DNA of 64,000 bases from Escherichia phage HY03. Shown here piece after piece: positions 23,941 through 41,972 of this stretch. The notes under the pieces were generated by a model. That model was not told where the DNA came from. It did no database searches and was given only the letters and a program-made list of their open reading frames with translations. A program made the position numbers and the translations under genes. The DNA is taken from the sequence record NC_031047.1; one strand, 5' to 3'. Position 1 is the stretch's first letter. Every line of letters starts with the position of its first letter.

Positions 23941-23969
23941 AGCCCTGACCGAAAGGTTGGGGCTTTTTA
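23941..23969 (+). terminator. intrinsic terminator: 10-bp stem, GAAA loop, U5 tail
   Basis: AGCCCTGACC-GAAA-GGTTGGGGCT followed by TTTTT. Confidence 0.8.
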
Positions 23970-24043
23970 GTTTGAATCACTCAGAGAATGCTGTTACGGA
24001 TAATAAATAATTAATAACCAATAAATTATTTCAAGGATTTTAA

Positions 24044-24607: not shown

Positions 24608-24615
24608 TTTTAAAT

Positions 24616-24640
24616 CCCTATCTAAATGATAGGGCTTTTT
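24616..24640 (+). terminator. stem-loop CCCTATC-TAAAT-GATAGGG with T-run
   Basis: 7-bp stem then CTTTTT. Confidence 0.6.
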
Positions 24641-24762
24641 GGTATCTAGGCCTTTCCGGGCCTCTCTAGGCATCATTTAGTTTATATCCTTTATAATATA
24701 TTATCCTACCTTTTAATTGCCCCTCCCCGCCCTAAAATTCCCTAAAAATTTTTCACAAAACT

Positions 24763-24792
24763 GTTTACATCCCTGTTCTTCTATGGTACTAT
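24763..24792 (+). promoter_or_regulatory. T4-type early promoter (GTTTAC, 18 nt, TACTAT) with A/T-rich UP region
   Basis: Part of the repeated promoter-leader cassette family. Confidence 0.7.
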
Positions 24793-24835
24793 ATCAATAT
24801 CAACTACTGATACAGAAAACAACTTGGAGAATAAA

Positions 24836-25099
24836 ATGGATAATTACGGTGAACTGTTCAACTTCTTTATGAAATGTGTTTCAGAAGATTTCGGTCGTAC
24901 AGTGAATGATATTAAAGTTATCGGTCCTGATCATCCGATGTTTGAAACTTACGCAGTAATGGGTAATGAAGATGGTCAGTGGTATACTGTAAAGGTTGTG
25001 ATTAACATGTTCACTGCTGAAGGTTATGTTAAACTGTCTTCTAAAGTTTACCATGATAACGATGAAATCGCAGAAGAATATTTCAATAATATGAAATAA
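24836..25099 (+). CDS. hypothetical protein
   Basis: 87 aa from ATG with GGAGA RBS (ORF track starts at upstream TTG). Confidence 0.65.
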   Translation: MDNYGELFNFFMKCVSEDFGRTVNDIKVIGPDHPMFETYAVMGNEDGQWYTVKVVINMFTAEGYVKLSSKVYHDNDEIAEEYFNNMK

Positions 25100-25167
25100 T
25101 TGTGTACAAACACCAAGGACGGTGTTATTATAGACTTATCAAAACAAATACAGAAACGGAGAAATAA

Positions 25168-25332
25168 ATGACTACTTTAATTATTTGGTTTGACGAAAAT
25201 GAAGAAACATACTGCGTGAACATTGGCGAAAGCCCAATGCCAGAATTTGAATCTTCGGATAAAAACTCGGTTGTATCTTGGGCTGAAGGTTATAAAGCAG
25301 CAAAAGGCGATGTTGAAATAGTTTACAAATAA
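25168..25332 (+). CDS. small acidic hypothetical protein (54 aa)
   Basis: ATG with GGAG RBS at 7-nt spacing; below the ORF track length cutoff. Confidence 0.45.
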   Translation: MTTLIIWFDENEETYCVNIGESPMPEFESSDKNSVVSWAEGYKAAKGDVEIVYK

Positions 25333-25375
25333 TACTCTTATGGATTTTAAATCTTAATTAACCTAAGGAAATACT

Positions 25376-25969
25376 ATGAACACACTGAAGAAAATTGTTG
25401 AGTTTATTCGCACTAAACTTGGTTCTGCTATGGCTAAAAATTTATCCGTTGAAGAACAGTATACTGCTGCGGCAGCAAAACTACTTGATAAGATTAAAGA
25501 TCTAAAAACTGCTTCTGTTAAATCTATTAATGAAGAAAAGCGTATTCGTGAACTTATTGTCGAAAAGAATAAGCAGGCCGAATCAAAAGAGCGTGAAATT
25601 CGCAAGCTTCTTTCTGAAGGTCAAGATGTAACAATGCATGCTAAACTTGGTTTGCTATATCGTCGAACAGCTGAACAGTTGACTACTAAAGCTGATGGTT
25701 ATGCTGAAATGCGAATTGAAATCGCCAAGAAAGTAGTTGAGTTAGATGATGCTCGCCAAGAACTTGCAGTTAAATTGGAATATATCCGTGAAACTCGTGC
25801 AGCAAATGCCCTTGGAATTAGTACTGCTGATGATGTAGTTGAAATTGCAGCGCTGACTAAGGTTGATATTGAAGATACTCTTGCTCGAGTTGAAACCTTT
25901 AATGGTAATATTTCTGGGGTTGAAACTACCTCTGCCGATGTTCAGGAATACATTAATTCTCTGAAATAA
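25376..25969 (+). CDS. coiled-coil protein, tentatively PspA/IM30 (Vipp1)-like
   Basis: 197-aa all-helical heptad-rich protein whose pattern resembles PspA; assignment from memory only. Confidence 0.5.
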
Positions 25970-26010
25970 TGATAAGGGGCTTAGGCCCCTATTACTTGGA
26001 GTAAATAGGA

Positions 26011-26619
26011 ATGAAAATGCAAAGTGATTTCAATTCAATGTTTGAAGAGTTCCAAAGACAGGTTGATGTTCCAGACCAATTGCTAAATGCTCTTAAACGC
26101 ATGGCAGAAGGACGTAATTATTATTGGGGTTCTTCATATGAAACAGACGAAAGCCTTTCTGGAAGATTTTCCAGAGGTAAAAAGTCTTTAATACGTCCTG
26201 GAATACTTATTAACAGTATTGAATCAATTTATTCATTGACATGCGATTTTGATGTTGAATTTACTGATTTCATTTCTCCTGAATGGACAGTTTGTTATTT
26301 AAACGACGATTTTGATTATCTCGGTGTTTATAGTTTAAGTGACGCATGGTTTAAACGTAACTTACAAAAGTCAAATTTATTCTATATTGATACTACAGTA
26401 AAATTTCAGGGAAAGAAATATTTCTTTACTCTTATAGTTGATTCTGAAACGAAGCATGAAAATAAACGTATTCTTAGTAAAAGAAATATCTTGAATATTG
26501 TTGATGATCTTTTTGATAAATTAGTGGAAAATCCTAATTTTGAAAGTGATTTATTACTAGAAAAATTTGTTAAGGAATGTAGAGAATATGTCAAAACCAT
26601 CACTATACCTTCCAAGTAA
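26011..26619 (+). CDS. hypothetical protein with C-terminal FVKECRE motif
   Basis: 202-aa ORF; C-terminal motif shared with the next three genes. Confidence 0.65.
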   Translation: MKMQSDFNSMFEEFQRQVDVPDQLLNALKRMAEGRNYYWGSSYETDESLSGRFSRGKKSLIRPGILINSIESIYSLTCDFDVEFTDFISPEWTVCYLNDDFDYLGVYSLSDAWFKRNLQKSNLFYIDTTVKFQGKKYFFTLIVDSETKHENKRILSKRNILNIVDDLFDKLVENPNFESDLLLEKFVKECREYVKTITIPSK

Positions 26620-26980
26620 ACCGTTGAAGTATGAATTAAAGCGTCAGATAATTTCTACTGATGTATTAATAGGTCCTGTTATACTTATATCATTTGTAAT
26701 TCTATTGATTATTGGAGGTGTTTTAGATGTTATGACTGATATTGATTCTGGCGAAATACTTGTGTTAATGCTAATTCTTCCATTAATAGTTCCATTTTTA
26801 TTAGTACCTATAAATTGGGTAGGATACTGGTATCAAGGAAGGCATTATCGTAAACGTGTACGTGATTGGAAAGCACAGTGTAAAAAGATTAAAAAGGAAC
26901 ACCAGCTTAAACTTGCTGCGTATGAATTTGATGAAATTATGAAATTTGTTAAGGAATCACGATGCAAAAGCCAAAACTAA
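26588..26980 (+). CDS. small membrane protein (2 predicted TM helices), paralog family
   Basis: 130 aa from ATG; hydrophobic core; C-terminal FVKESRCK motif. Confidence 0.65.
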   Translation: MSKPSLYLPSKPLKYELKRQIISTDVLIGPVILISFVILLIIGGVLDVMTDIDSGEILVLMLILPLIVPFLLVPINWVGYWYQGRHYRKRVRDWKAQCKKIKKEHQLKLAAYEFDEIMKFVKESRCKSQN

Positions 26981-27324
26981 ATAAAGTCAAATATTCGCTT
27001 CCTGAGTCATTTTTAATTTTTGCTGTGGCGTTGGCTGCAGCTCTTGCAGGTAGTATTTTTGGATTGTTAATTGACTGTCTTATTTTAAACATCGACGACA
27101 CAGTAAATATAACAGAAGTTTGGAGTGAGCTTTGTTATACTAAAATTATTTCATTGTTTTCATTCTTTGGTACAATGTTATATTTTCATTATGATAATTT
27201 TAAAATAAATTGGCAAAGAAAAAAGGATTACAAAATACAATTAAAAGAATATAACAACTACGTGTCTTATATTGAAAAAGAATCAATGGAAGAGTTTGTG
27301 AGTGATTGTAGGAAAATCAAATGA
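26962..27324 (+). CDS. small membrane protein, paralog family
   Basis: 120 aa; TM segments; C-terminus EEFVSDCRKIK. Confidence 0.65.
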   Translation: MQKPKLNKVKYSLPESFLIFAVALAAALAGSIFGLLIDCLILNIDDTVNITEVWSELCYTKIISLFSFFGTMLYFHYDNFKINWQRKKDYKIQLKEYNNYVSYIEKESMEEFVSDCRKIK

Positions 27325-27809
27325 TTTTAAAAACTCGCTGGTATGATTTAGATGATGGGGATGATGGCATTTCAGTTGATAGAGTTGATTGGAATGGTTG
27401 TTCCGAAGATACAAAGAAACGATTAATTAGGGAGTTTAGAATGGGATATCAAGCAGCTAAACCATTTACTGTAACAGATGATAAATTCGTGTGTATTCAA
27501 AATGGTCGCGCTAAGTTAACGAATGCCGATTGGTTCACAGATAAGAAGGTTATTCTGTGGTATATCATTAGTCTTCCTATATCATCGTTCGTATTTTACT
27601 TTTTTATAAAAAATCCAATGGACAGAATAGGAGATTGGGTTCTTTTAACTATACTTGTTAATATTTTTACAGCAGCAGTATTATCAGGAATATGGCGTAT
27701 GTTCATTGAAATGCCATGGCGTTTACGCAGACAGCAAAAGATTTTTGATGAAAAGAAATATGCTCAAAATTTAAATAACTTTATCACTGAATGCAGGAAA
27801 TTAAAATGA
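27321..27809 (+). CDS. small membrane protein, paralog family
   Basis: 162 aa; TM segments; C-terminus NNFITECRKLK; ATGA overlap with previous gene. Confidence 0.65.
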   Translation: MILKTRWYDLDDGDDGISVDRVDWNGCSEDTKKRLIREFRMGYQAAKPFTVTDDKFVCIQNGRAKLTNADWFTDKKVILWYIISLPISSFVFYFFIKNPMDRIGDWVLLTILVNIFTAAVLSGIWRMFIEMPWRLRRQQKIFDEKKYAQNLNNFITECRKLK

Positions 27810-28246
27810 AAACATTATCAGCTGGTATTATCTTCATGACAGAAGATAAAGATTTATTTATGGGTCGGGTTACTGGTTCTCGTAAGCCTGGAATGATGGC
27901 ACATCGCTGGGATATTCCAAAGGGACGTGTAGAAAGTTCTGATTTGAATGCACTGGAAGCTGCAAAAAGAGAATGCTTAGAAGAGACCGGTTTTAGCAAT
28001 TATAATCCAGACCTTCTAGAAGACCTAGGTGTATTTAAATATTCTAGTAATAAAGACTTACAGTTATTTTATTATACGATTCCAGTAGAGCATGAGATGT
28101 TTAGAAATTGCCATTGTGAGTCTTATTTTGAAAATAAAGATGGTGTTATGATTCCAGAGATGGACGCTTTTGCTCTTATTCCTCGTACTCAGTGGCAATA
28201 TGTGATGGGTCCTTCACTTTACCGAATAATGAACAACCTCTTTTAA
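27791..28246 (+). CDS. nudE: Nudix hydrolase NudE (e.1)
   Basis: 151 aa; Nudix box GRVESSDLNALEAAKRECLEETGF. Confidence 0.85.
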   Translation: MQEIKMKTLSAGIIFMTEDKDLFMGRVTGSRKPGMMAHRWDIPKGRVESSDLNALEAAKRECLEETGFSNYNPDLLEDLGVFKYSSNKDLQLFYYTIPVEHEMFRNCHCESYFENKDGVMIPEMDAFALIPRTQWQYVMGPSLYRIMNNLF

Positions 28247-28777
<531 letters not shown>

Positions 28778-28781
28778 AGCT

Positions 28782-28811
28782 GTTTACTTTCTCTTAGAAT
28801 TGTGATAGTAT
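28782..28811 (+). promoter_or_regulatory. early promoter (GTTTAC, 18 nt, TAGTAT)
   Basis: Directly after the e stop, upstream of the second IP-like gene. Confidence 0.65.
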
Positions 28812-28870
28812 ATTCACAGTTACTTGAATAGACAATTACCAATTAAAATATTTACATTTAAAGGAAACAC

Positions 28871-29344
28871 ATGAAAACATATCAAGAATTTATTACTGAA
28901 GCAGCTATTAATTCTCAAATTATTGCTGAATCTTTTACTGATCTTTTGAAATTTAAAAAAGGACAGAAAATCACTGCTGTATTGGATGATGGTACAGAAG
29001 TTGAGATGGATGTACAGGGATATAATTATGCAGTAGATGGAAAACTGTATAATAAATCTCATGCTAAATTTGATTCATTTGACGACTTTGTTAATACAGT
29101 TGAAGATGAAAAAACTCGTCGATCCATTGCAACTGGTGATGCTAAGGTTCTTATGGCACATGGTCATGAACGCATTCGCGCTAAACAGAATAAAATGGGT
29201 GAAGATAATTTTGCATTAGTTGGTTATCAATCTGGTAAGCAAACTTATGGCTATCAGCGTACTGCTACCATGTATAATAAAAATGGTAAAATCGCTTTCG
29301 TGAATAGTAAAGGTTCTATTCAGTACGTTAAATCGTTCAAATAA
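28871..29344 (+). CDS. internal protein-like capsid-targeted protein (CTS MKTYQEFITEA)
   Basis: 157 aa with canonical IP capsid-targeting sequence. Confidence 0.8.
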   Translation: MKTYQEFITEAAINSQIIAESFTDLLKFKKGQKITAVLDDGTEVEMDVQGYNYAVDGKLYNKSHAKFDSFDDFVNTVEDEKTRRSIATGDAKVLMAHGHERIRAKQNKMGEDNFALVGYQSGKQTYGYQRTATMYNKNGKIAFVNSKGSIQYVKSFK

Positions 29345-29437
29345 TATGGGAACAACCTGGACCTCATGATTCTGTGAGGGATTCCCGCCAACCTGTAATA
29401 AGGTCGAGCCCAAGTGCGGTAATGGGTAAATACAGAA

Positions 29438-30025
29438 ATGGACAATTCATGCGCCATGGAATGGCCCAAACCTAGAGAGAACAAAATGAGAACATTTTTA
29501 ACTGGTCCTTATCTATCCCTGATGAATGCTTTTACACACCATTCTGATGCTAGAGTAGAAGAAATTTGTAAAAACGATTATATCCCGCCATTTGAAGACT
29601 TACTTAAGCAGTATTGCACACTTCGACTAGATGGTGGACGTCAATCCGGTAAATCAACTGCAGTAACTAATTTTGCCGCTAATTGGTTGTATGACGGTGG
29701 AACAGTTATTGTTCTTTCTAATACTTCAGCTTACGCTAAAATTTCTGCAAATAGCATCAAAAAGGAATTTTTGCGTTATTCTAATGATGATATACGTTTT
29801 CGTTTATTTACTGATTCTGTGCGCAGTTTTATCGGTAATAAAGGAAGCAAGTTCAGAGGTTTAAAGCTTTCGCGAATTTTGTATATAATTGATGAGCCTG
29901 TCAAATCTCCTGATATGGATAAGATTTATAGTGTCCATATTGACACTGTACACTGCTGCTGTAATATTAAATGTTGTATTGGTGGTATTACTCGTCCACA
30001 GTTTTTCGTAATCGGAATGCAATGA
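29438..30025 (+). CDS. hypothetical P-loop protein at the position where T4 has denV
   Basis: Walker A-like GGRQSGKST; start ambiguous (ATG at 29438, 29456 or 29486); no similarity to endonuclease V as recalled. Confidence 0.55.
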   Translation: MDNSCAMEWPKPRENKMRTFLTGPYLSLMNAFTHHSDARVEEICKNDYIPPFEDLLKQYCTLRLDGGRQSGKSTAVTNFAANWLYDGGTVIVLSNTSAYAKISANSIKKEFLRYSNDDIRFRLFTDSVRSFIGNKGSKFRGLKLSRILYIIDEPVKSPDMDKIYSVHIDTVHCCCNIKCCIGGITRPQFFVIGMQ

Positions 30026-30351
30026 TGACAGACACTCAGCTTTTCGAATATCTTTATTTTTCGCCAAAAACTATTAAAAATAAATTAGTGAATCATTTTG
30101 AAATTTTGGCAAATAACAACGTCTTGAGCGAATTTTATCCTAAGCAATACAAATTACAAAAAGGCGTATTCAAAGGATGCAGAGTTTTGTGTACTGCTCC
30201 TAATGCACGGCTAATGAATAAAATTCCATATTTTACCATGGAATTTATTGATGGGCCTTTTAAAGGACTAATCACCCAAAGTTTAATGGCATATGATTCT
30301 GAGCCATTTTTAATTAAAGAACAATCTTGGATAAATTTATTTTCTAATTGA
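30025..30351 (+). CDS. hypothetical protein
   Basis: 108 aa from ATG overlapping the upstream stop (ATGA). Confidence 0.55.
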
Positions 30352-30358
30352 GGTTTAT

Positions 30359-30721
30359 ATGAAAGCATATCAAATTCTTGAAGGCACACATAAAGGTACT
30401 ATTTATTTTGAAGATGGTATTCAAGCACGAATTATCGTTTCTAAAACCTTTAAAGAGGACTCTTTTGTAGACCCAGAAATTTTCTACGGTTTGCATGCCC
30501 GTGAAATTGAAATTGAGCAACAGCCTACAGTTAAAATTGAAGGTGGTCAACACCTGAACGTTAACGTTCTGCGTCGTGAAACTCTGGAAGATGCAGTTAA
30601 GCATCCGGAAAAATATCCGCAGCTGACCATCCGTGTATCCGGTTATGCAGTTCGCTTTAACTCTCTGACTCCGGAACAGCAGCGCGACGTTATCGCTCGT
30701 ACCTTCACCGAGAGTTTGTAA
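30359..30721 (+). CDS. autonomous glycyl-radical cofactor (GrcA/YfiD-like)
   Basis: C-terminal 60 aa nearly identical to E. coli GrcA glycyl radical domain ([39 protein letters not shown]); T4 encodes a known homolog (Y06I). Confidence 0.9.
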
Positions 30722-30942
30722 TGGCAAAGATAATTATTGAAGGTTCTGAAGATGTGCTAAATGCTTTCGCCGAATGGTTTAGTAATTCAGGCGAACAGCA
30801 ATTTAACGAAGCATGGAACATGGGTGATATTGATGGAATTTATCCCACGACAGAAATTTCTGTTCAAGGATATGGAATTCATGAGCCTATTCGTTTAGTT
30901 GAATATGATTTAGGTACTGGTGAGGAAGTAAAATATGATTGA
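30721..30942 (+). CDS. hypothetical protein
   Basis: 73-aa ORF with ATGA coupling to upstream gene. Confidence 0.55.
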   Translation: MAKIIIEGSEDVLNAFAEWFSNSGEQQFNEAWNMGDIDGIYPTTEISVQGYGIHEPIRLVEYDLGTGEEVKYD

Positions 30943-31201
30943 AGATATTAAGGGTTATAAGCCACATACTGAAGAGAAAATCGGTAAAGTGAATGCTATT
31001 AAAGACGCTGAAGTTCGTTTAGGACTTATCTTTGATGCTTTATACGATGAATTCTGGGAAGCACTAGATAATTGTGAAGACTGTGAATTCGCGAAGAATT
31101 ATGCTGAAAGCCTCGATCAGTTAACTATTGCTAAAACGAAACTCAAAGAAGCCAGTATGTGGGCTTGCCGTGCTGTGTTCCAACCAGAGGAAAAATACTA
31201 A
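30935..31201 (+). CDS. hypothetical protein (vs.4/Acb2 position, unverified)
   Basis: 88-aa ORF; size and position similar to T4 vs.4. Confidence 0.5.
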
Positions 31202-31479
31202 TGGCTCAATTAAGCGCAGGGTTTGGTTATGAGTATTATACTGCCCCTCGTCGTGTATCTGTTGCTCCTAAGAAAATTCAAAGTCTTGATGACTTCCAGG
31301 AAGTAGTTCGTAACGCTTTCCAGGACTATGCACGTTATCTTAAAGAAGATTCACAGGACTGTCTCGAAGAAGATGAAATTGCTTACTATGAGCAGCGTCT
31401 TGAACAGCTCAAAAATCTACATGAGGTTCGTGCAGAAGTTTCAAAGTCTATGAATAAATTGGTCAGATTTAAAGAATAA
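31201..31479 (+). CDS. hypothetical protein
   Basis: 92 aa from ATG overlapping the upstream stop. Confidence 0.5.
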
Positions 31480-31481
31480 CT

Positions 31482-31511
31482 GTTTACTTTTCCTCTTGAC
31501 TGTGGTATAAT
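31482..31511 (+). promoter_or_regulatory. early promoter (GTTTAC, 18 nt, TATAAT) upstream of regB
   Basis: Consensus T4 early promoter with extended -10 TGTGGTATAAT. Confidence 0.7.
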
Positions 31512-31538
31512 TTTTCTATCAGTTAAGAGGAGAATAAC

Positions 31539-32000: not shown

Positions 32001-32007
32001 GGTAAGC

Positions 32008-32893: not shown

Positions 32894-33357
32894 TTGTAAA
32901 ATATATCAAGGGCGATATTGTCGCCCTTTTCACTGAAGGTAAAAATATTGCGCATGGATGCAATTGTTTTCATACGATGAAAGCTGGAGTCGCAGGTCAA
33001 TTAACCAAAGCTTTCCCTAAAATTTTGGAAGCTGATAAATTACAGACTGAATGGGGTGATGTAACTAAACTTGGTTCTTATTCAGTCTATGAAAAATACT
33101 TTAGGACTCATAAAGCTTACTGCTTTAATCTTTATACTCAATTTCAACCAGGGCCAAATTTTGAATATTCCGCTTTAATGAATTGTATGTTAGAATTAAA
33201 TGAGTTTGGTGAAAATAAACTGATTAAACCTACAATCTATATGCCTAGGATTGGTGCAGGCATAGGTAAAGGGAACTGGGATATTATTGAGGGGATTTTA
33301 GATACATATTCCTCTAAATTAGAAATTGTGATTGTTGATTGGGAACCATTATTATGA
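32890..33357 (+). CDS. macro-domain-like protein (putative ADP-ribose binding/hydrolase), tk.4 position
   Basis: Motifs AHGCNCFHTMKAGVAGQL and IGAGIGKG resemble macro-domain signatures; assignment tentative. Confidence 0.5.
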   Translation: MIVKYIKGDIVALFTEGKNIAHGCNCFHTMKAGVAGQLTKAFPKILEADKLQTEWGDVTKLGSYSVYEKYFRTHKAYCFNLYTQFQPGPNFEYSALMNCMLELNEFGENKLIKPTIYMPRIGAGIGKGNWDIIEGILDTYSSKLEIVIVDWEPLL

Positions 33358-33566
33358 ATATACATTATCCACATCCATATGACCCAAAGAATAAGGCAGT
33401 AATTATTCGTCAATGGGAACGCATTTGCCGTACTAAATGCCCAATTAATAGTCCGCATGATGTAGATAAAGACTATATTGGAACATTCGTTGAATATACC
33501 TTTATTGATAAGAAAGGTCGTAAACAACACGTAGAAGAATATTGCTTAAAGGTGCAATGGTTATGA
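33354..33566 (+). CDS. hypothetical protein
   Basis: 70 aa from ATG overlapping the upstream stop; Cys/His-rich. Confidence 0.5.
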   Translation: MNIHYPHPYDPKNKAVIIRQWERICRTKCPINSPHDVDKDYIGTFVEYTFIDKKGRKQHVEEYCLKVQWL

Positions 33567-33748
33567 GTCTGAGTAAAGGACAAAAAGATAAATTGTTTGA
33601 GCTTATCCATGAACTTCTAGATGAGCATACAGAAGCAAACACCTTTTATGATGAATACGGCCCGCTATCTCCCGAACAGCAAGAAGAATTTGCTGACCGG
33701 TTTGATAAGAAAGAAAACGAATTAATAGCTTATGTGAATACGCTTTAA
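33563..33748 (+). CDS. hypothetical protein
   Basis: 61 aa from ATG overlapping the upstream stop. Confidence 0.45.
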   Translation: MSLSKGQKDKLFELIHELLDEHTEANTFYDEYGPLSPEQQEEFADRFDKKENELIAYVNTL

Positions 33749-33757
33749 GAAGGTGAT

Positions 33758-34339
33758 ATGGCGAGTTTAATTTTTACTTATGCAGCAATGAATGCTGGAA
33801 AATCTGCTTCTCTTTTGACTGCTGCGCATAATTATAAAGAACGTGGAATGAGTGTATTAGTTCTTAAGCCTGCTATTGATACTCGTGATTCTGTCTGTGA
33901 AGTCGTTTCTCGCATTGGAATTAAACAGGAAGCTAATATTATTACGGATGATATGGATATTTTTGAGTTCTATAAATGGGCTGAAGCACAAAAAGATATT
34001 CATTGCGTATTTGTAGATGAAGCTCAGTTTTTAAAAACTGAACAAGTGCATCAATTGAGTCGAATTGTTGATACATATAATGTTCCTGTTATGGCTTATG
34101 GATTAAGGACTGATTTCGCTGGAAAATTATTTGAAGGTTCTAAAGAACTTTTGGCGATTGCAGATAAACTTATTGAACTAAAAGCAGTTTGTCATTGTGG
34201 TAAAAAAGCTATTATGACAGCTCGATTAATGGAAGATGGAACACCAGTTAAAGAAGGTAATCAAATCTGTATTGGTGATGAAATTTATGTTTCTTTGTGC
34301 AGAAAACATTGGAATGAATTAACTAAAAAGCTCGGTTAG
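33758..34339 (+). CDS. tk: thymidine kinase
   Basis: 193 aa; P-loop GKSASLL; Zn-ribbon CHCG...C; matches T4 Tk. Confidence 0.95.
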   Translation: MASLIFTYAAMNAGKSASLLTAAHNYKERGMSVLVLKPAIDTRDSVCEVVSRIGIKQEANIITDDMDIFEFYKWAEAQKDIHCVFVDEAQFLKTEQVHQLSRIVDTYNVPVMAYGLRTDFAGKLFEGSKELLAIADKLIELKAVCHCGKKAIMTARLMEDGTPVKEGNQICIGDEIYVSLCRKHWNELTKKLG

Positions 34340-34381
34340 TGCAAAAGTTATAAATAGGTTTATCTAACTAAAGGGGTATAT

Positions 34382-34594
34382 ATGTTACAATTAACTGAAA
34401 AGCAACTTCGCAATCTTACTGTTCTTCAATTAGATGAAATTCGTAGGGAAGTTGGAAATATCATTTCAGCTTTGCGTCGAGAAGTATCACTCAACCAATC
34501 TCCGGCAGACTATACTAGATTGCGAAATTTTGAAAAATACCTTGATAAAGTTAAGGCCGTGCATCGGCATAAAGTAAATACAGGGCAAAAATGA
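34382..34594 (+). CDS. hypothetical protein (rI.-1 position)
   Basis: 70-aa ORF between tk and rI. Confidence 0.55.
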
Positions 34595-34606
34595 TAGGAG
34601 GCCTTT

Positions 34607-34900
34607 ATGGCCTTAAAAGCAACGGCACTATTTGCCATGCTAGGATTGTCATTTGTTTTATCTCCATCGATTGAAGCGAATGTCGATCCTCATTTTGATA
34701 AATTTATGGAATCTGGTATTAGACATGTTTATATGCTTTTTGAAAATAAAAGCGTAGAATCATCTGAACAGTTCTATAGTTTTATGCGAACGACTTATAA
34801 AAATGACCCGTGCTCTTCCGATTTTGAATGTATAGAGCGAGGCGCGGAGATGGCACAATCATACGCTAGAATTATGAACATTAAATTGGAGACTGAATGA
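34607..34900 (+). CDS. rI: RI lysis-inhibition regulator (periplasmic antiholin)
   Basis: 97 aa with signal-anchor sequence; matches T4 RI length and position. Confidence 0.8.
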   Translation: MALKATALFAMLGLSFVLSPSIEANVDPHFDKFMESGIRHVYMLFENKSVESSEQFYSFMRTTYKNDPCSSDFECIERGAEMAQSYARIMNIKLETE

Positions 34901-35283
34901 AATTCAGCGACTTTTCACAAAGTGGAAAACCTTCAAAGGCAGATGAATACTTAGGTTTATTAATGGCTGCGCAAGCTTATTTTCATTCTGCGCATTTTGA
35001 AACTAAAAGTTATGCTAGACACAAAGCATACGATTTTATTTTCTCTGAGTTGCCAGATTTGATTGATAAATTTGGTGAGCAATATTTGGGGTATTCTGGT
35101 AGAAAATACACGCCTTCAATTCCAGATGCTAGTAAACTTCCTACCGACACAATTAAAATGATTGATCGCATACTAGACCAATCTAACAGCATTTATAAAG
35201 AAATGCCTCCAGCTATCCAAAGCACGATAGATGATATTACTGGAATGTTTTACCAGAGTAAGTATCTTCTTTCCCTCGAATAA
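34897..35283 (+). CDS. hypothetical protein (rI.1 position)
   Basis: 128-aa ORF with ATGA overlap with rI. Confidence 0.6.
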
Positions 35284-35287
35284 CATT

Positions 35288-35310
35288 AGTCTCCTTCGGG
35301 AGACTTTTTT
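35288..35310 (+). terminator. intrinsic terminator AGUCUCC-UUCG-GGAGACU with U6
   Basis: Perfect 7-bp stem, UUCG loop, TTTTTT. Confidence 0.75.
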
Positions 35311-35320
35311 CATTTTACCG

Positions 35321-35350
35321 GTTTACTTTCCGTTTGAGCTGTGGTACTAT
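35321..35350 (+). promoter_or_regulatory. early promoter (GTTTAC, 18 nt, TACTAT) with conserved leader
   Basis: Member of the repeated cassette; leader TGGTACTATACAACTATC. Confidence 0.7.
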
Positions 35351-35378
35351 ACAACTATCGGATAAAGAGGAGAACATC

Positions 35379-35567
35379 ATGAAAATTGAAGCACTTAATC
35401 AAGAAGGAAATATCTACGTCATCATTAATGGTGATTTTTTCGTCGACATGGATGAAGTTACCAGTGAAGAACTTGTAGAACTTCTTAAGAAACGTTATAA
35501 TATGTGTGATGAAGTTGCAACTCACATGGCGTGTGCAATATTCTCTCTTTCATATGTGGTGGAATAA
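35379..35567 (+). CDS. hypothetical small protein
   Basis: 62 aa from ATG with GAGGAG RBS. Confidence 0.6.
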
Positions 35568-35770
35568 TGATTAGTATCGAACAAGCGGATAAGATTAAAG
35601 AATTGGTAGCTTTAATTCGTAAAGCAGATGAAGAGCTGATTGACTTTGCTTGGTATTCATCGGGTATTTCGAATAAAGGCATTAAAGACTTTGAAACTAA
35701 AGTGGATAATGCTATAGAAGCGTTAGATATGTTTCTTGATGAAATTATTGATCATAATACGAGAGTTTAA
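35567..35770 (+). CDS. hypothetical small protein
   Basis: 67 aa; ATG overlaps the upstream stop. Confidence 0.55.
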   Translation: MISIEQADKIKELVALIRKADEELIDFAWYSSGISNKGIKDFETKVDNAIEALDMFLDEIIDHNTRV

Positions 35771-35772
35771 GT

Positions 35773-35973
35773 ATGTTAACACGTGAACAGTTTGAAAAAA
35801 TCATTAAATTAGCACGTGATGTTGAAATAGATTCATACCAATTGGCAGTTGAGCATTGTGAAGGATATTCATACGACGGTATAGAAGCAGCTAAAAAGGA
35901 TTTGGATAAATCTAAAGCTAAGTTAGTTCAATATCTTGAAATGATTAGGTGGAATAATGAAAACTGTAGTTAA
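35773..35973 (+). CDS. hypothetical small protein
   Basis: 66-aa ORF. Confidence 0.55.
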   Translation: MLTREQFEKIIKLARDVEIDSYQLAVEHCEGYSYDGIEAAKKDLDKSKAKLVQYLEMIRWNNENCS

Positions 35974-36967
35974 GTCTTATTTTGGTAGTCATCTTTATGG
36001 AACTTCTACTCCAGAATCTGATGTAGATTTTAAAGAAATCTTTGTTCCTCCTGCTCGTGATATTCTTATCGGAAATGTTAAAGAGCATATGAGTAAAAAC
36101 ACTAACAACACATCATCTAAAAACACCAAAGATGATATTGACCATGAACTATACAGTCTTAAATATTTCTTTAAATTAGCAGCAGATGGTGAAACTGTAG
36201 CATTGGATATGCTCCACACTCCACCTGAACTGGTAGTTAAATCTGATTTGCCTGATGTATGGAAGTTTATTCAAGACAATCGTTCTCGTTTTTATACGAC
36301 TAACATGAAATCCTATTTAGGATATGTTCGCAAGCAAGCTTCTAAATACGGTGTTAAGGGTTCTCGTTTGGCCGCATTACGTGATGTATTGAAAGTAGTT
36401 AATCAAATCCCCGATCAGTGGGTTGATTATCAAGAAGGAATCCCTGATAGACTTCGTCGTACTAAGGTAGAAGATATCAAACACAGACTCCCTGAAAACG
36501 AATTCTGTGAATGGGTGTTCCATAATCATGAGAAAACAGGCCCACAGACGTTTTACACAGTGTTGGGTCGTAAATATCAGACAACTCTTTCTCTTATTGA
36601 GCTTAAGCAGTCACTGAATAAATTAGATGCTGAATACGGTGAACGCGCTCGTAAGGCCGAAGCCAATGAAGGCATTGACTGGAAAGCTCTGAGTCATGCT
36701 TGTCGTGGTGGACTCCAACTATTGGAAATTTACAAAACTGGTGACTTGGTTTATCCACTTCAAGACGCTCCATTTATTCTCGACGTGAAGTTGGGTAAAC
36801 ATCCATTTAAAACCGTTCAAGAGTTTTTGGAAGATGTGGTCGATCAAGTAGAAGCAGCATCTACTGAAGCTTCTAAGAACGGTATGCCTAAAACAGTAGA
36901 CATGAGTTTCTGGGATGACTTCCTTGAGAAGGTCTATCTTGAAAACCACCGAAGTTATTATAAATGA
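35957..36967 (+). CDS. nucleotidyltransferase-fold protein (Pol-beta-like NTase motif GS...SD.D)
   Basis: N-terminal GSHLYGTSTPESDVD matches the minimal NTase signature; 336 aa with helical C-terminal domain. Confidence 0.65.
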   Translation: MKTVVKSYFGSHLYGTSTPESDVDFKEIFVPPARDILIGNVKEHMSKNTNNTSSKNTKDDIDHELYSLKYFFKLAADGETVALDMLHTPPELVVKSDLPDVWKFIQDNRSRFYTTNMKSYLGYVRKQASKYGVKGSRLAALRDVLKVVNQIPDQWVDYQEGIPDRLRRTKVEDIKHRLPENEFCEWVFHNHEKTGPQTFYTVLGRKYQTTLSLIELKQSLNKLDAEYGERARKAEANEGIDWKALSHACRGGLQLLEIYKTGDLVYPLQDAPFILDVKLGKHPFKTVQEFLEDVVDQVEAASTEASKNGMPKTVDMSFWDDFLEKVYLENHRSYYK

Positions 36968-36969
36968 TA

Positions 36970-36993
36970 GGGAGCCTTCGGGCTCCCTTTTTT
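36970..36993 (+). terminator. intrinsic terminator GGGAGCC-UUCG-GGCUCCC with U6
   Basis: Perfect 7-bp stem, UUCG loop, TTTTTT. Confidence 0.75.
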
Positions 36994-37018
36994 ATTTCAA
37001 AAATTTTTTCACAAAGTG

Positions 37019-37048
37019 GTTTACAAGCATAAAGCTTTATGGTACTAT
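37019..37048 (+). promoter_or_regulatory. early promoter (GTTTAC, 18 nt, TACTAT) with conserved leader
   Basis: UP element AATTTTTTCACAAAG; leader TGGTACTATACAACTATCAA. Confidence 0.7.
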
Positions 37049-37084
37049 ACAACTATCAAAACAAACACTTAAACGGAAAACAAA

Positions 37085-37234
37085 ATGAAAATTACACCAA
37101 TTGAAGTAAAAAAGTTGATTGACACAGAAGAAATTTCAGAGTGTTTTGAAAGTTTCTTAGAAGATGCAACTGAAGATAATGCAGTTTATCTCGCTCAGAA
37201 AATTATCGAAACTTATTTGGAGAAGAATCAATGA
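37085..37234 (+). CDS. small acidic hypothetical protein (49 aa)
   Basis: ATG downstream of early promoter; ATGA overlap with next gene. Confidence 0.45.
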   Translation: MKITPIEVKKLIDTEEISECFESFLEDATEDNAVYLAQKIIETYLEKNQ

Positions 37235-37494
37235 CAGTTTACGTAGATGTTTTAATGAATCATGGATGGAAACTTCGCGGTCATCCAACTAAAAATTGTC
37301 ATATGTTCACTGATGGAGATATTGAAGAGCTTCACGAAATGGCAGAAGCAATAGGAATGAAACGTTCTTGGTTTCAAGATAAACGCATTAAACATTATGA
37401 CTTACACGCTCGGCGACGCCAAAAAGCTGTAGAACTTGGAGCTGTAGAAGTATCTCGTCGCGAAGCAGTAAAAATTTGGCAAACATTAAAATAA
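37231..37494 (+). CDS. hypothetical protein (conserved His/Cys-containing small protein)
   Basis: 87-aa ORF. Confidence 0.6.
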   Translation: MTVYVDVLMNHGWKLRGHPTKNCHMFTDGDIEELHEMAEAIGMKRSWFQDKRIKHYDLHARRRQKAVELGAVEVSRREAVKIWQTLK

Positions 37495-37497
37495 ATT

Positions 37498-37527
37498 GTT
37501 TACAGCAGGGTAGTAGTGTGATACTAT
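37498..37527 (+). promoter_or_regulatory. early promoter (GTTTAC, 18 nt, TACTAT)
   Basis: Upstream of the ATPase gene; leader ...TTGGAGAATAAAATG shared with the gene at 24836. Confidence 0.65.
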
Positions 37528-37563
37528 TACCCTATCAAAACAAATGTAAAATTGGAGAATAAA

Positions 37564-38532
37564 ATGAAAACTGTAACTATCAATAAGGGTATCTACTTTG
37601 GTAAAGAAATCTCTGGAACTTTTGAGCTCTTAGGTGAATGGTTCCCAGATAATGCTCCGGTAGATGCACAAGGAGATGGTAAAGTTTTTGTTGAAATTGA
37701 CGGTAAACGTCGCGGTGTTTGGGTTTACAAATCAGACATTTCATATGATGGTGTAAAAGTTGAAGAAGTTAAAGAATCATATGAAGATATGAAAACCCGC
37801 ATTAATAAAAGATTTAATGTTATGGGAATGATGACGAATGGTATTATTAACGGAAACATTCGTTCATTAATTATCTCTGGTGCGGCGGGTATTGGTAAAA
37901 CGTATTCTTTAGATAAAGCTTTAAATAAAGCAAATGATAATGGATACATTGAATATAAAAGCATTAACGGTAAAATCTCTGGTATCGGTCTTTATGAACA
38001 GCTCTGGAATAATCGTGAAGAGAATTCTGTCCTTTTGATTGATGATGTGGATGTTTTCTCTGATATGGACATTCTTAATCTTCTGAAAGCTGCTCTGGAC
38101 ACTGGAGAGACCCGTAAAGTCTGCTGGAGCACCGCATCTTCTTACTTAGAAGAAAAAGGCATTGAGCGTGAGTTTGAATTTAAAGGAACGATTGTTTTTA
38201 TCACAAACGTTGACATTGACCGCGAATTAGACCGTGGTACTAAACTTGCTCCACATTTACAAGCATTAGTGTCCCGCTCAGTTTATTTAGATTTGGGTGT
38301 TCACACTAATGAAGAAATTATGGTCAGGGTTGAAGATGTTATTCTTTCAACCGACATGATGCAAAAGCGTGGTCTTTCTGATGAAGAAACTTATAAAGCA
38401 TTATCATGGATGAAAGTCAATGTTAACCGTTTACGTAATGTTTCACTGCGTACTGCACTTTATCTTGCTGACTTTATTATGACCGACAAAAACGGTTGGG
38501 AAGAAATTGCTGAGGTTACTCTTCTGAAATAA
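37564..38532 (+). CDS. P-loop NTPase / AAA-type ATPase, unknown function
   Basis: Walker A GAAGIGKT and Walker B LLIDDVD; 322 aa from ATG. Confidence 0.7.
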   Translation: MKTVTINKGIYFGKEISGTFELLGEWFPDNAPVDAQGDGKVFVEIDGKRRGVWVYKSDISYDGVKVEEVKESYEDMKTRINKRFNVMGMMTNGIINGNIRSLIISGAAGIGKTYSLDKALNKANDNGYIEYKSINGKISGIGLYEQLWNNREENSVLLIDDVDVFSDMDILNLLKAALDTGETRKVCWSTASSYLEEKGIEREFEFKGTIVFITNVDIDRELDRGTKLAPHLQALVSRSVYLDLGVHTNEEIMVRVEDVILSTDMMQKRGLSDEETYKALSWMKVNVNRLRNVSLRTALYLADFIMTDKNGWEEIAEVTLLK

Positions 38533-38631
38533 ATTCATAAGAGGACTTCTAAGACAAAAAGGCAGTTCAGAAATAGATTATATGGACTGCCATTAAAAAG
38601 ATGACTAGAATTAAACTGGTAAATGGAGGTA

Positions 38632-38937
38632 ATGATGTTATACTCAAAGGCTCGTGAAATTTACGAAACTAAGATTAAAGAAGCTGTATTTCAGTTCGCA
38701 ACAACAATGCGATGGACAAATGATTGGGAATATTCAAAAAATCATAAGAAGCCCATGGTGACAAGAAAGGCTCATATGTTAGTGTTAATAGACCGTGAGC
38801 AGATTAAAGCCCGAGAAGCCCTCCAGAATCATAAAAAGGCTGCCTTTGAATGGTTTATGGATAACACTGCTCCTGAGACTAAGAAAGTAGTGAGCGCATG
38901 GTTCAGTGGAAAAAATTGTGAAAGAAGTTTCTTTTAG
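38632..38937 (+). CDS. hypothetical protein
   Basis: About 101 aa; GGAGG RBS precedes ATG 38632/38635. Confidence 0.55.
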   Translation: MMLYSKAREIYETKIKEAVFQFATTMRWTNDWEYSKNHKKPMVTRKAHMLVLIDREQIKAREALQNHKKAAFEWFMDNTAPETKKVVSAWFSGKNCERSFF

Positions 38938-38939
38938 TT

Positions 38940-38969
38940 GTTTACAAGACTGTTCCTCTGTGGTACTAT
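38940..38969 (+). promoter_or_regulatory. early promoter (GTTTAC, 18 nt, TACTAT) with conserved leader
   Basis: Third exact copy of TGGTACTATACAACTATCAA. Confidence 0.7.
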
Positions 38970-38997
38970 ACAACTATCAACTACGGAGGAACACAAA

Positions 38998-39525
38998 ATG
39001 AACGCTAAAGATATTTTCAACCTGGTAAATTACAACGATGGTAAATTTAAATCTGAAGCACAAAGCAAGTTCTTTAATGACATCTCAATCGGAGGTGAAA
39101 TCACGGTTGATGGAGGACAAATTTACAAATCCCGTTGGAATTGGATCGTTATTATCGATGAGATTGGTATTGTAGAAATTTACAAGAATACGAATAAAAA
39201 TCGTACATTACACTGGTCTCGTGATACTAACGAACAGTACAAAAAGGATAAAGCATCTAAATTATCTCGTGTAACTCAAGAAGATATTGAGTTCATCAAG
39301 AAAGATATTTTAATGTATGATAACTTAATTGCTGAAGAGCAAGCTGTTATTGATAAATTTGACGAGATTAAAGCTTCTCGTGAAATTCCTGATTTTATGA
39401 AAGAATCAGTAAATGAACGATACACTCTCATTTCAGAGCGTATTGAAACTTACAAAAAGCAAAGAGCTGAACGCCAAAATACTCTTCGGAAGTTTGAAGA
39501 ACGGTTAAAGACGGTACTCGCATAA
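38998..39525 (+). CDS. hypothetical protein
   Basis: 175 aa from ATG with GGAGGA RBS (ORF track begins upstream inside the promoter). Confidence 0.65.
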   Translation: MNAKDIFNLVNYNDGKFKSEAQSKFFNDISIGGEITVDGGQIYKSRWNWIVIIDEIGIVEIYKNTNKNRTLHWSRDTNEQYKKDKASKLSRVTQEDIEFIKKDILMYDNLIAEEQAVIDKFDEIKASREIPDFMKESVNERYTLISERIETYKKQRAERQNTLRKFEERLKTVLA

Positions 39526-41944: not shown

Positions 41945-41972
41945 GTTCTTACTTTCTACTGAGGAGATTAAT

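Follow-up and report, generated by a model that had tools for sequence, protein, structure and literature searches.

Repeated T4-type early-promoter cassettes heading small accessory genes in Escherichia phage HY03, and their partial coincidence with the edges of variable gene slots

The window analyzed here, a 64,000-nucleotide stretch of the Escherichia phage HY03 genome, is that of a Tequatrovirus (T4-like phage), with 96-97% identity to Tequatrovirus genomes. Between positions 24616 and 39000 (the span) its gene order is that of T4 from e.8 to nrdC.8, on the opposite strand relative to T4. When the window was searched for the pattern GTTTAC-N18-TAYTAT with at most one mismatch, 14 matches were found vs 1.5 expected, and none of 100 shuffled sequences reached 14. 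Eight of these matches lie within the span, with -35 hexamers starting at 24763, 25102, 28782, 31482, 35321, 37019, 37498 and 38940; all are on the + strand, which is the coding strand, all are intergenic, and each is placed directly 5' of an ORF, 22-59 nt upstream of its ATG. The first-pass annotation had counted at least nine early promoters, a figure reached only if the copy at 41915 or that at 50067, both outside the span, is included.

The -35 hexamer, GTTTAC, is the T4 variant of the -35 TTGACA and is exact in seven of the eight span promoters. The 18-nt spacer ends in TGG, TGA or TGT in all eight (extended -10), and the -10 hexamers (TACTAT, TATTAT, TATAAT or TAGTAT) have the form TAnnnT. 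The whole pattern GTTTAC-N18-TAYTAT, real as it is, is exact in only five of the eight, the deviants being 25102 (GTGTAC), 28782 (TAGTAT) and 31482 (TATAAT). Span promoters directly follow the stop codon or the terminator hairpin of the preceding gene, end in a short leader, a Shine-Dalgarno sequence and the ATG of the next gene, and head short units of small accessory genes.

The cassettes, all on the + strand, are as follows. That of e.8 (24744..24835) has an UP-like element at 24748-24760, the -35 GTTTAC at 24763-24768, TGG plus the -10 TACTAT at 24787-24792, and a 43-nt leader with the Shine-Dalgarno sequence GGAG before the ATG at 24836; its orthologue is the T4 promoter at OZ035787 143453. 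The cassette of a 54-aa ORF (25102..25167; -35 GTGTAC, -10 TATTAT at 25126-25131) begins 2 nt past the stop codon of e.8 and bounds on its left one of the variable slots considered below, slot B. The cassette of the internal protein (IP) gene Ip4 (DUF7412; 28782..28870; -35 GTTTAC, -10 TAGTAT at 28806-28811, 59-nt leader) carries an 8-bp dyad, AATTGTGA/TCACAGTT, on either side of the -10, is located in the highly polymorphic slot D, and has its orthologue at T4 139255. The regB early promoter (31482..31538) has its -35 at 31482-31487 and its -10, TATAAT, at 31506-31511. In the mobD.5 cassette (35321..35378; orthologue T4 131545) the -35 GTTTAC is followed by TGG plus TACTAT at 35345-35350 and then ACAACTATC; one relative, Sf25, has 35194-35338 deleted at this cassette. 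The cassette before a 49-aa ORF (37000..37084), with the UP-like TTTTTTCACAAAG at 37004-37016, -35 at 37019-37024 and -10 TACTAT at 37043-37048, and that of nrdC.10 (37498..37563; -35 at 37498-37503, -10 TACTAT at 37522-37527) are the left and right edges of slot G. The last in the span is that of nrdC.8 (38940..38997; -35 at 38940-38945, -10 TACTAT at 38964-38969; orthologue T4 126708). Outside the span, a cassette of the same class (41915..41972; -35 GTTTAC, -10 TATAAT) adjoins a 1.04-kb deletion carried by the window; the breakpoint of this deletion falls within the opening codons of a pair of paralogous genes.

Six of the eight span promoters (24763, 28782, 31482, 35321, 37019 and 38940) have T4 orthologues in both position and sequence, and orthologues of the cassettes were found in T4 and in distant relatives. 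It is hardly conceivable that the sites arose by chance, as AT-rich DNA that happens to fit a loose promoter consensus. A generic sigma-70 scan does give 86 sites vs 81 in shuffled sequence, and the 13-mer AATTTTCACAAAG, described as the UP element, is not above chance when up to two mismatches are allowed (10 found vs 8.2 expected), but the excess of the T4 pattern, the intergenic, coding-strand placement of all eight span copies upstream of an ATG and the T4 orthologues refute this reading. The label of T4-type early promoters for the repeats in the span is right, and judging from sequence the repeats quite probably serve a T4-like coliphage as strong early promoters in front of small accessory genes, some of them directly preceded by a terminator hairpin. 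Promoter activity of the eight sites is predicted from orthology and consensus; they would be sigma-70-dependent early promoters of the information-rich T4 class, and, from what is known of T4, host RNA polymerase would use them immediately after infection. The regB promoter has been described as early.

Two further elements of the initial description required correction. The 18-mer TGGTACTATACAACTATC does occur in exact copies at 35342, 37040 and 38961, but it consists of TGG, the -10 hexamer TACTAT and a 9-nt discriminator/start region; since the extended -10 element takes up half of it, it is not the transcribed 18-20-nt leader that had been proposed, and almost none of it would be transcribed. 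As for the proposed common UP element, the only exact copy of AATTTTCACAAAG in the window is at 50052, outside the span, in a cassette at 50052..50126 (+ strand) with its promoter at 50067, and an approximate match at 34910 falls inside the coding sequence of rI.-1 and is followed by no promoter. There is a genuine shorter core, TTTCACAAA-N2-4-GTTTAC, which among the span promoters is present only at 24751 and 37007; the remaining ones are A/T-rich upstream without a common motif (upstream identity 0.33 vs 0.27 at random positions).

Most of the promoters had also been said to be preceded by a GGGNNC-UUCG hairpin terminator, which is true of only two of the eight. The intrinsic-terminator-like hairpin after rI.-1 (35288..35311, + strand) is made of AGTCTCC-TTCG-GGAGACT (35288-35305) plus T5, and its family also precedes the T4 promoters at 88051 and 34184; that after nrdC.11 (36969..36994, + strand; -17.7 kcal/mol) is made of AGGGAGCC-TTCG-GGCTCCCT (36969-36988) plus T6. 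The span holds two complete terminator+promoter units, 35288-35378 and 36969-37084. The hairpin CCCTATC-TAAAT-GATAGGG followed by CTTTTT (24616..24634, + strand), which differs from the UUCG type and lies 130 nt upstream of the promoter at 24763, terminates an IP-like ORF (24044-24607) and bounds slot A on the right; another small hairpin, GGCC..GGCC, is found at about 24649-24662. The other five span promoters have no terminator before them, and each abuts the stop codon of the preceding gene. Outside the span, a terminator hairpin (23941..23970, + strand; AGCCCTGACC-GAAA-GGTTGGGGCT plus T5) bounds slot A on the left, and it (23941-23964) shares the junction sequence GGGCTTTTT with the 24616-24634 terminator. 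By T4 orthology it would end the region matching T4 RNA C, and in JB75-type genomes it is duplicated, flanking an extra ORF.

Stable stem-loops are embedded within the promoter at 31482, 37498 and 38940 (fold z = -3.2 to -5.3), that of nrdC.10 pairing 37507-37518 with 37522-37533 (-16.4 kcal/mol, z = -3.2), and no significant embedded hairpin was found at 25102, 28782 or 24763 (fold z > -1.5). Under the broader published definition of promoter-early stem-loop (PeSL) cassettes, in which the stem-loop may lie inside the promoter, five to six of the eight have some stem-loop. Promoter-embedded stem-loops were read as attenuators by Arbiol 2010 (PMC2839356).

A separate observation concerns the regB and nrdC.8 cassettes, where the early-promoter spacer pairs with the Shine-Dalgarno sequence. 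The regB hairpin (31488-31505 / 31516-31534; -21.6 kcal/mol, z = -5.2) leaves the -10 in the loop, and the pairing co-varies across distant T4-like phages; in the nrdC.8 hairpin (38951-38964 / 38980-38993; -20.2 kcal/mol, z = -5.3) the spacer TTCCTCTG faces the Shine-Dalgarno sequence CGGAGGAA, and in the distant relatives L075/L076 the arms differ yet stay complementary. Because the predicted start site of both promoters is inside the hairpin, the hairpin would form in read-through RNA only. Hairpins that sequester the ribosome-binding site and contain an internal promoter are known for T4 genes e, soc, 49 and I-TevI (Uzan & Miller 2010, PMC3014915). The two HY03 cassettes resemble them in pairing the Shine-Dalgarno sequence with upstream sequence while the promoter start lies inside, but the T4 cases use late promoters, whereas the predicted 5' arm in HY03 is an early-promoter spacer.

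The first-pass annotation had named as its refutation cassettes no more similar than unrelated sigma-70-type promoters, and it withstands this check, because the similarity of the copies goes beyond what composition or shared consensus alone predicts. Outside the fixed elements the copies have a mean identity of 0.36, against 0.27 at random positions (P<0.002), and maximum identity, variance and shared runs of at least 8 nt are above a column-shuffle (consensus-only) null (P<=0.012). Most of the excess comes from the 30 nt 3' of the -10, and the promoter cassettes make up the largest direct-repeat families of the 23.5-42.5 kb region. Within the window the likeness is patchy (<=53% identity at non-fixed positions), and exact runs do not exceed 20 nt, which is short for efficient homologous recombination. 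Closer copies exist at unlinked loci: the cassette at 37019 shares 96% identity over 73 nt with the T4 gene 32/frd.3 promoter cassette, and that at 37498 shares 89% identity over 66 nt with the T4 frd.1 promoter, although the ORFs that they flank are unrelated to those at the matching T4 loci.

These similarities could in principle reflect functional convergence only, with selection driving every early promoter and translation start towards one demanding consensus, a possibility that we regard as rather doubtful. Spacer positions 1-13 are not significantly similar among the cassettes (P=0.05-0.07), as convergence would have it, but the similarity exceeds the consensus-only null, and the unlinked T4 promoters at 128148 and 50745 have the whole unit in common, including an identical 18-nt spacer. 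The sequence of the spacer is not constrained by the promoter consensus.

To map variation, insertion and deletion edges were surveyed in 16 related genomes, giving eight variable slots (A-H). Cassette zones, 6.6% of the sequence, contain 12 of the 37 breakpoint clusters (P=3e-6), and breakpoints occur at 7/9 promoter junctions vs 9/31 other junctions (P=0.013). Slot A is edged by terminator hairpins, with breakpoints at 24591-24624 among the 16 relatives and a 40-nt overlap. Slot B has its left breakpoint at 25094-25099 in 14/16 relatives, and its alleles all open with the -35 hexamer (GTTTAC; GTGTAC in the window type) 0-3 nt from the e.8 stop. Slot D, the internal-protein locus, has breakpoints at 28766, 28826, 28841-28861 and 28902-28908. 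Slot G is cassette-bounded on both sides (breakpoints 37024, 37059 and 37091 on the left, 37552-37567 on the right) and is empty in the T4 type, holds two ORFs in the window, a modA-like gene between two complete terminator+promoter units in ECO07P3 and three stacked modules in L008; simple recombination between the two cassettes that flank the slot in the window would not give the T4-type empty allele. The right-hand cassette of ECO07P3 joins a gene-32-type hairpin to the nrdC.10 leader, the mix expected of a crossover inside the shared promoter. The cassettes had been proposed to mark recombination boundaries, and this holds for four of the eight indel slots. Slots C, E, F and H lack a cassette and show 4-30-nt overlaps at gene junctions plus one homing-endonuclease insertion, slot E being multi-allelic without any promoter.

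Cassette gaps are not significantly enriched in breakpoints when compared with other non-coding gaps of at least 25 nt (7/9 vs 4/8, P=0.25). The conserved cassettes at 31482 and 38940 show no structural variation in the 16 genomes, allelic mosaicism shifts at nearly every gene, cassette or none, and adjacent-gene identity profiles show no correlation anywhere (mean rho 0.08 where there is no cassette, 0.01 where there is one). In this region indels neither require a cassette nor follow from the presence of one, and cassettes have no visible part in ordinary allelic recombination.

The reading by convergence would explain the indel edges by breakpoints surviving in non-coding DNA and by a transplanted gene needing its own promoter, with no promotion of recombination. 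The loss of enrichment against other gaps, the half of the slots without cassettes and the equal density of allelic recombination with or without them agree with it; against it stand the hybrid cassette of ECO07P3 and the cassette-to-cassette circles demonstrated experimentally in RB49/phi1 (PMC2839356), and here too we hold it to be possible but not probable. Less likely still is that mobile cassettes are the main driver of accessory-gene turnover by way of promoter-bounded mini-circles that are excised and integrated. Several alleles exist in each of slots B, D and G, with modules stacked head to tail, each with its own promoter, near-identical cassette copies are dispersed, and mini-circles have been published for RB49/phi1, but the cassette-free slots, among them the multi-allelic slot E, the two structurally invariant cassettes and the homology tracts of <=20 nt within the HY03 genome speak against so dominant a role. 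We favor a more limited reading. Cassettes and indel edges are co-located; a 60-110-nt cassette recurs at many loci with patchy 60-96% identity and therefore supplies short portable homology, through which modules (promoter plus ORF or ORFs, with or without terminator) may be gained, lost, stacked or swapped at some cassettes, as in the PeSL model.

Lists of T4 early promoters are reportedly available from Wilkens & Ruger and from Miller et al. 2003. The HY03 promoters share with those of T4 the GTTTAC -35, the TGn extended -10, a -10 of the TA..AT type, an A/T-rich upstream region (with the TTTCACAAA-type element at two span promoters only), the conserved start region, the spacing (18 nt from the GTTTAC hexamer, 17 from the inner TTTAC.) and the downstream genes, and nothing of substance differs. 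T4 early promoters have been called 'uber' promoters, which combine UP, -35, TGn and -10 elements with further consensus regions (Hinton 2010, PMC2988021). The promoters at 25102 and 37498 head modules missing from T4 at these positions, and their sub-families exist elsewhere in T4.

The consensus published for T4/PST PeSLs, TTTACW-N17-TAYWAT (Comeau 2014, PMC4122927), fits all eight span promoters, and the match proposed initially is reasonable in this respect, but not in the upstream UUCG terminator then described. Five published subclasses place the stem-loop upstream of, within or overlapping the promoter. The HY03 cassettes resemble PeSLs in joining an AT-rich region, early promoter, in five to six of the eight a stem-loop, Shine-Dalgarno sequence and ATG, repeated in hyperplastic regions beside indels between close relatives; they differ in that the upstream terminator is present in two copies only, the stem-loop lies inside the promoter in three, and the association with indels is partial. 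Cassette-to-cassette mini-circles were shown by inverse PCR in RB49/phi1 only (Arbiol 2010, PMC2839356). Taken together, the PeSL reading is partly supported, and the observation that prompted it is partly confirmed, its anatomy having been over-generalized; since promoters of this kind, and the part proposed for them in gene shuffling, were already published for T4/PST (Arbiol 2010; Comeau 2014), the finding is real but ordinary.

Shuffling of internal-protein genes has been described in T-even phages (Repoila et al. 1994, as cited in PMC4122927). As far as that citation describes the system, HY03 is alike in that IP genes are interchangeable in both slot D (e to vs.8) and slot A. A promoter/leader is common to these genes, as is a conserved N-terminal part of the coding sequence (24044-24078 vs 28871-28905, 83% identical). 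The homology, with breakpoints at 28902-28908, reaches into the coding sequence and is therefore not that of a purely regulatory cassette, which sets HY03 apart from the T-even system as cited there.

Many genomes of Tequatrovirus (T4-like) coliphages match the span 24616-39000 at 96-97% identity. The genes of the span lie on the plus strand of the window, which corresponds to the minus strand of T4. The gene map, checked by start and stop codons, is colinear with T4 e.8, e.6-e.2, nudE, e, the internal-protein gene, vs.8-vs.3, regB, vs.1 and vs, and this colinearity continues through tk.4-tk, rI.1, rI, rI.-1, mobD.5-mobD.3, nrdC.11, nrdC.10, nrdC.9 and nrdC.8. When up to one mismatch was allowed, 14 matches to the pattern GTTTAC-N18-TAYTAT were counted in the window, where 1.5 would be expected; 0/100 shuffled sequences reached this count. 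Eight early promoters were found in the span, all on the coding (+) strand and in intergenic gaps, with -35 hexamers starting at 24763 (upstream of e.8), 25102 (a 54-aa ORF), 28782 (ip4), 31482 (regB), 35321 (mobD.5), 37019 (ORF49), 37498 (nrdC.10) and 38940 (nrdC.8); the cassettes are named here by these coordinates. The first-pass annotation had counted at least nine, a figure obtained only by adding the sites at 41915 and 50067, outside the span. Five of the eight match the pattern exactly and three deviate from it (GTGTAC at 25102, TAGTAT at 28782 and TATAAT at 31482); a Shine-Dalgarno (SD) sequence and an ATG follow after 22-59 nt in every case, and five of the promoters abut the stop codon of the preceding gene.

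T4 early promoters are recognised by the host sigma-70 RNA polymerase immediately after infection and are strong competitors through their combined UP, -35, TGn and -10 elements (PMC2988021), and regB is transcribed from a T4-type early promoter (PMC3014915). In the span, we infer promoter and terminator functions throughout from the sequence. The 18-mer that had been described as a shared leader is indeed present in exact copies at 35342, 37040 and 38961; it is composed of TGG, the -10 hexamer TACTAT and the nine nucleotides up to the start site, and therefore it is not a transcribed leader. The proposed 13-mer UP element was not recovered in the span, since its sole exact copy is at 50052, outside it, matches with two mismatches occur at chance level, and the match at 34910 is coding sequence; two promoters do have a genuine shorter UP core, TTTCACAAA-N2-4-GTTTAC (24751 and 37007). 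UUCG terminators, said to precede most of the promoters, were located directly upstream of only two of them (35288-35305 and 36969-36988, each a hairpin with a T-run), where they would end upstream transcription, and a hairpin of a different type is found at 24616, 130 nt upstream of the 24763 promoter. Scanning 22500-42500 at Rfam gathering thresholds returned no family. Elsewhere, cassette-free gaps carry a MotA-box middle promoter (TGCTT ... TATAAT) at 39526-39580, before nrdC.7, and the late-promoter motifs TATAAATA before e (28247-28282) and rI.1 (34340-34381).

The similarity between the eight copies was analyzed leaving out the -35, TGTGG and -10 columns. The copies showed 36% identity, compared with 27% at random window positions (P<0.002), and they also exceeded a column-shuffle null that keeps the positional consensus (maximum identity, P=0.006; variance, P=0.004), with eight pairs sharing a common run of at least 8 nt versus 1.7 in that null (P<0.002). 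The excess resides mainly in the 30 nt after the -10, and similarity at spacer positions 1-13 was not significant among the eight copies. Three sub-families were distinguished, i.e. 24763/38940, 25102/37019/37498 and 28782/31482/35321/41915, and a scan of the whole T4 genome revealed the same sub-families throughout the early regions. The cassettes constitute the largest direct-repeat families in the 23.5-42.5 kb region (60-71 nt, 62-73% identity). Moreover, the 37019 cassette and that of T4 gene 32/frd.3 share 96% identity over 73 nt, a stretch that takes in all 18 nt of the spacer, and the 37498 cassette is 89% identical over 66 nt to the T4 frd.1 promoter, and the ORFs that they flank are unrelated to those at the matching T4 cassettes. 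Because both the random-position and the column-shuffle nulls were exceeded, and near-identical T4 cassettes stand beside unrelated ORFs, the sequences indicate that the cassettes are related copies beyond mere membership of one promoter class; the copies are thus modestly more alike than unrelated promoters, as the first-pass annotation had supposed.

To locate indels, 16 Tequatrovirus loci were compared (T4, JB75, AR1, Sf25, F25, ECO07P3, ECML-134, teqhal, KIT03, HP3.1, JE01 and five IMG/VR genomes) by overlap-tolerant chaining of BLAST HSPs, scoring indels or replacements of at least 30 nt with the window as sole reference. Eight recurrent slots (A-H) were observed in the span or at its edge, four with regulatory cassettes and four without. 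Slot A (23968-23977/24591-24624) holds an internal-protein-like ORF between two terminator hairpins sharing GGGCTTTTT, and in JB75-type genomes it contains a second ORF with a 40-nt copy of the first terminator on each side. The 187-aa ORF at 24044-24607 opens with a coding stretch of about 35 nt (MKTY.EF.TEAA) also present in Ip4 (24044-24078 versus 28871-28905, 83% identity), which resembles the leader that targets T4 internal proteins to the capsid; because of this resemblance the ORF is probably another internal protein, its Pfam match being sub-threshold only. In slot B (25094-25099/25327-25360) a -35 hexamer stands at the start of each allele, 0-3 nt from the e.8 stop codon, reading GTGTAC in the window type and GTTTAC otherwise, and the modules of the slot (the 54-aa ORF, e.7 and a 531-nt ORF) are single, stacked or absent. 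Slot D (28766-28908/29336-29344) is a known internal-protein shuffling locus. Slot G (37024-37091/37552-37567), with cassettes at both edges, is empty in T4-type genomes and contains ORF49 plus a DUF4031 ORF in the window, JB75, ECML-134, JE01 and the IMG/VR genome L009; in ECO07P3 it carries a ModA-like gene between two complete terminator-promoter units, and in the right-hand unit a hairpin of the gene-32 type is followed by the leader of nrdC.10. In L008 three promoter-headed modules are stacked.

The remaining four slots lack cassettes. Slot C (27324/27780) shows a 30-nt overlap, slot E (33562-33567/33739-33758) is multi-allelic with 4-6-nt overlaps, and slot H (38513/38540) corresponds to a seg-type homing endonuclease. 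Slot F (35944-35966) is a 1.7-2.3-kb deletion with a 20-23-nt overlap; the sequence is absent from the window and L006 (IMG/VR) and present in the 13 other relatives covering the site, and the missing genes are mobD.2a and mobD.1 plus either mobD or three other ORFs, so that mobD.3 is joined to nrdC.11. Similarly, a deletion beside the 41915 promoter, just outside the span, fuses two paralogous genes at their first codons and does not run from cassette to cassette. In the same neighbourhood, the nrdC.5 homologue (40892-41915) is split into two overlapping frames: the first has 98 aa, and near codon 97 the reading passes to the +1 frame. This shift occurs at a short run of T and reflects either a pseudogene or a sequencing error.

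Whether the cassettes mark recombination boundaries, as had been proposed, received a divided answer. When events shared by descent in the 16 genomes were counted once per coordinate cluster, the clusters not being phylogenetically independent, 12 of the 37 breakpoint clusters fell in cassette zones, which make up 6.6% of the sequence (P=3e-6), and breakpoints were found at 7/9 promoter-bearing junctions versus 9/31 others (P=0.013). The proposal is supported by this enrichment and by the four slots that involve cassettes; against it stand the four slots without them and the comparison limited to gaps of at least 25 nt, in which the difference was not significant (7/9 versus 4/8, P=0.25). Because of this last result, the breakpoint data cannot separate cassette-promoted exchange from the survival of breakpoints in non-coding DNA combined with the need of modules for promoters. 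The cassettes, whose elements, positions, T4 orthology, repetition and co-location with some module edges were observed directly, might occasionally supply homology for ectopic exchange, a process suggested for RB49/phi1, where part of it has been demonstrated (PMC2839356), and then also for T4/PST (PMC4122927).

Allelic exchange was analyzed through the identity of window genes (24044-42899) to 14 genomes. The nearest-neighbour genome shifts almost gene by gene, and adjacent genes show no correlation in their identity profiles (mean rho about 0.07 overall). A role of the cassettes as separators of allelic-ancestry blocks was rejected, the mean rho being 0.01 with and 0.08 without an intervening cassette (P=0.37). 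Since adjacent-gene profiles are uncorrelated with or without a cassette, ordinary allelic recombination is pervasive and independent of cassettes, and homologous recombination between the compared phages breaks linkage within about one gene length.

A break in colinearity with T4 lies 1.3 kb to the left of the span, around 22637-23633, with a junction at 23281/23282. The T4 late region, as far as alt, aligns with window positions 1-22966 on one strand, and the part of T4 that starts from rnaC/e.8 aligns with 23633-64000 on the opposite strand. At the junction, the ATG of a 116-aa ORF, which usually comes after tRNA-Arg, directly adjoins a truncated Alt-like ORF of 214 aa that has a TTG start and lies on the minus strand; the stretch 19000-25000 is devoid of tRNA genes. 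The junction is spanned in 0/753 phage records, and among 8 contigs listed of the 12 with the exact 116-aa protein, all six that include the upstream flank carry the normal tRNA-side genes there. The junction is either a ~52-kb inversion or an assembly or scaffolding artefact, and it has no effect on the promoter-cassette finding.

Three cassettes contain significantly stable promoter-embedded hairpins, at 31482 (-21.6 kcal/mol, z = -5.2), 38940 (-20.2 kcal/mol, z = -5.3) and 37498 (-16.4 kcal/mol, z = -3.2). In regB (31488-31534) and nrdC.8 (38951-38993) the 5' half of the spacer pairs with the SD, leaving the -10 in the loop; these two hairpins were rejected as intrinsic terminators because no U-tract follows the 3' arm. 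The regB upstream regions were then taken from 39 IMG/VR loci with RegB identities of 54-100%. In most lineages the arms differ yet stay complementary, e.g. TTCTCCTCTAGTTG/CAACTAGAGGAGAA, ATCTCCTTTTAGT/ACTAAAAGGAGAT and ATCCTCATTTG/CAAATGAGGAT. When 18 regB promoter variants were aligned with MAFFT, RNAalifold yielded no consensus structure, since the register of the stems shifts from lineage to lineage; a permutation test of cognate versus non-cognate duplexes was used in its place. Among 16 distinct variants, cognate spacer-leader helices averaged 9.7 bp and -15.6 kcal/mol versus 6.7 bp and -10.1 kcal/mol for non-cognate ones, and 0/20,000 permutations reached the cognate value. These comparisons indicate that the spacer-SD pairing of regB is selected. 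In a separate test, SD pairing exceeded that of dinucleotide-shuffled upstream sequence only modestly (0.54 versus 0.43, P=0.011), because pyrimidine-rich shuffles pair with the SD too; contrasting cognate with non-cognate duplexes gives a cleaner test. For nrdC.8, two of three divergent lineages (loci L069-L076) retain pairing with different sequences.

Across the T4 genome, cognate spacer-leader duplexes were also more stable than non-cognate ones (-8.85 versus -6.39 kcal/mol, P<5e-5), and about 10 of 34 promoters rank first for their own leader. In 19 of 44 T4 promoters (OZ035787) the -10 is tightly flanked or overlapped by a dyad of at least 6 bp, the longest reaching 13 bp, with cognate arms pairing better than non-cognate ones (P<5e-5); within the window alone, the -10-flanking dyad was not significant (P=0.34). 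Inverted repeats flanking or overlapping the -10 are seen in the window at 28798-28826 and 37507-37533. It is possible, if somewhat doubtful, that in some T4-type early cassettes the pyrimidine-rich 5' half of the spacer acts as an anti-SD arm tying translation to the cassette's own transcription start, the candidates being regB and nrdC.8 in the window and about 10/34 T4 promoters. In read-through RNA from upstream, the spacer arm would pair with the SD of the gene, hiding it from ribosomes and from RegB cleavage at GGAG, and RNA begun at the cassette's own promoter would lack the 5' arm and remain open. Because only read-through RNA can form the regB and nrdC.8 hairpins, the logic would resemble the published SD sequestration by the late-promoter hairpins of genes e, soc, 49 and I-TevI (PMC3014915), with the difference that the promoters here are early. 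Promoter-embedded stem-loops in RB49/phi1 have been read as attenuators (Arbiol 2010, PMC2839356).

The cassettes mark the early transcription units of the accessory-gene region of the phage and slots where related phages swap small genes, such as those for internal proteins, a DUF4031 protein and a ModA-like ADP-ribosyltransferase, which helps annotation as well as the selection of insertion sites in the engineering of T4-like phages. What is added here is a measure of how partial the association between cassettes and indels is, together with comparative evidence for spacer-SD pairing in the regB promoter. By sequence, the span promoters belong to the published T4 early-promoter class, and all eight fit the consensus TTTACW-N17-TAYWAT given for the promoter-early stem-loop (PeSL) cassettes of T4/PST (Comeau 2014, PMC4122927). 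They also agree with PeSL cassettes in promoter, SD/ATG, repetition and location, and a stem-loop accompanies 5-6 of the eight under the broad published definition, which allows it inside the promoter. Since the literature on T4-type phages already contains both this promoter class and the hypothesis of shuffling by PeSL cassettes, the finding leaves existing knowledge unchanged.
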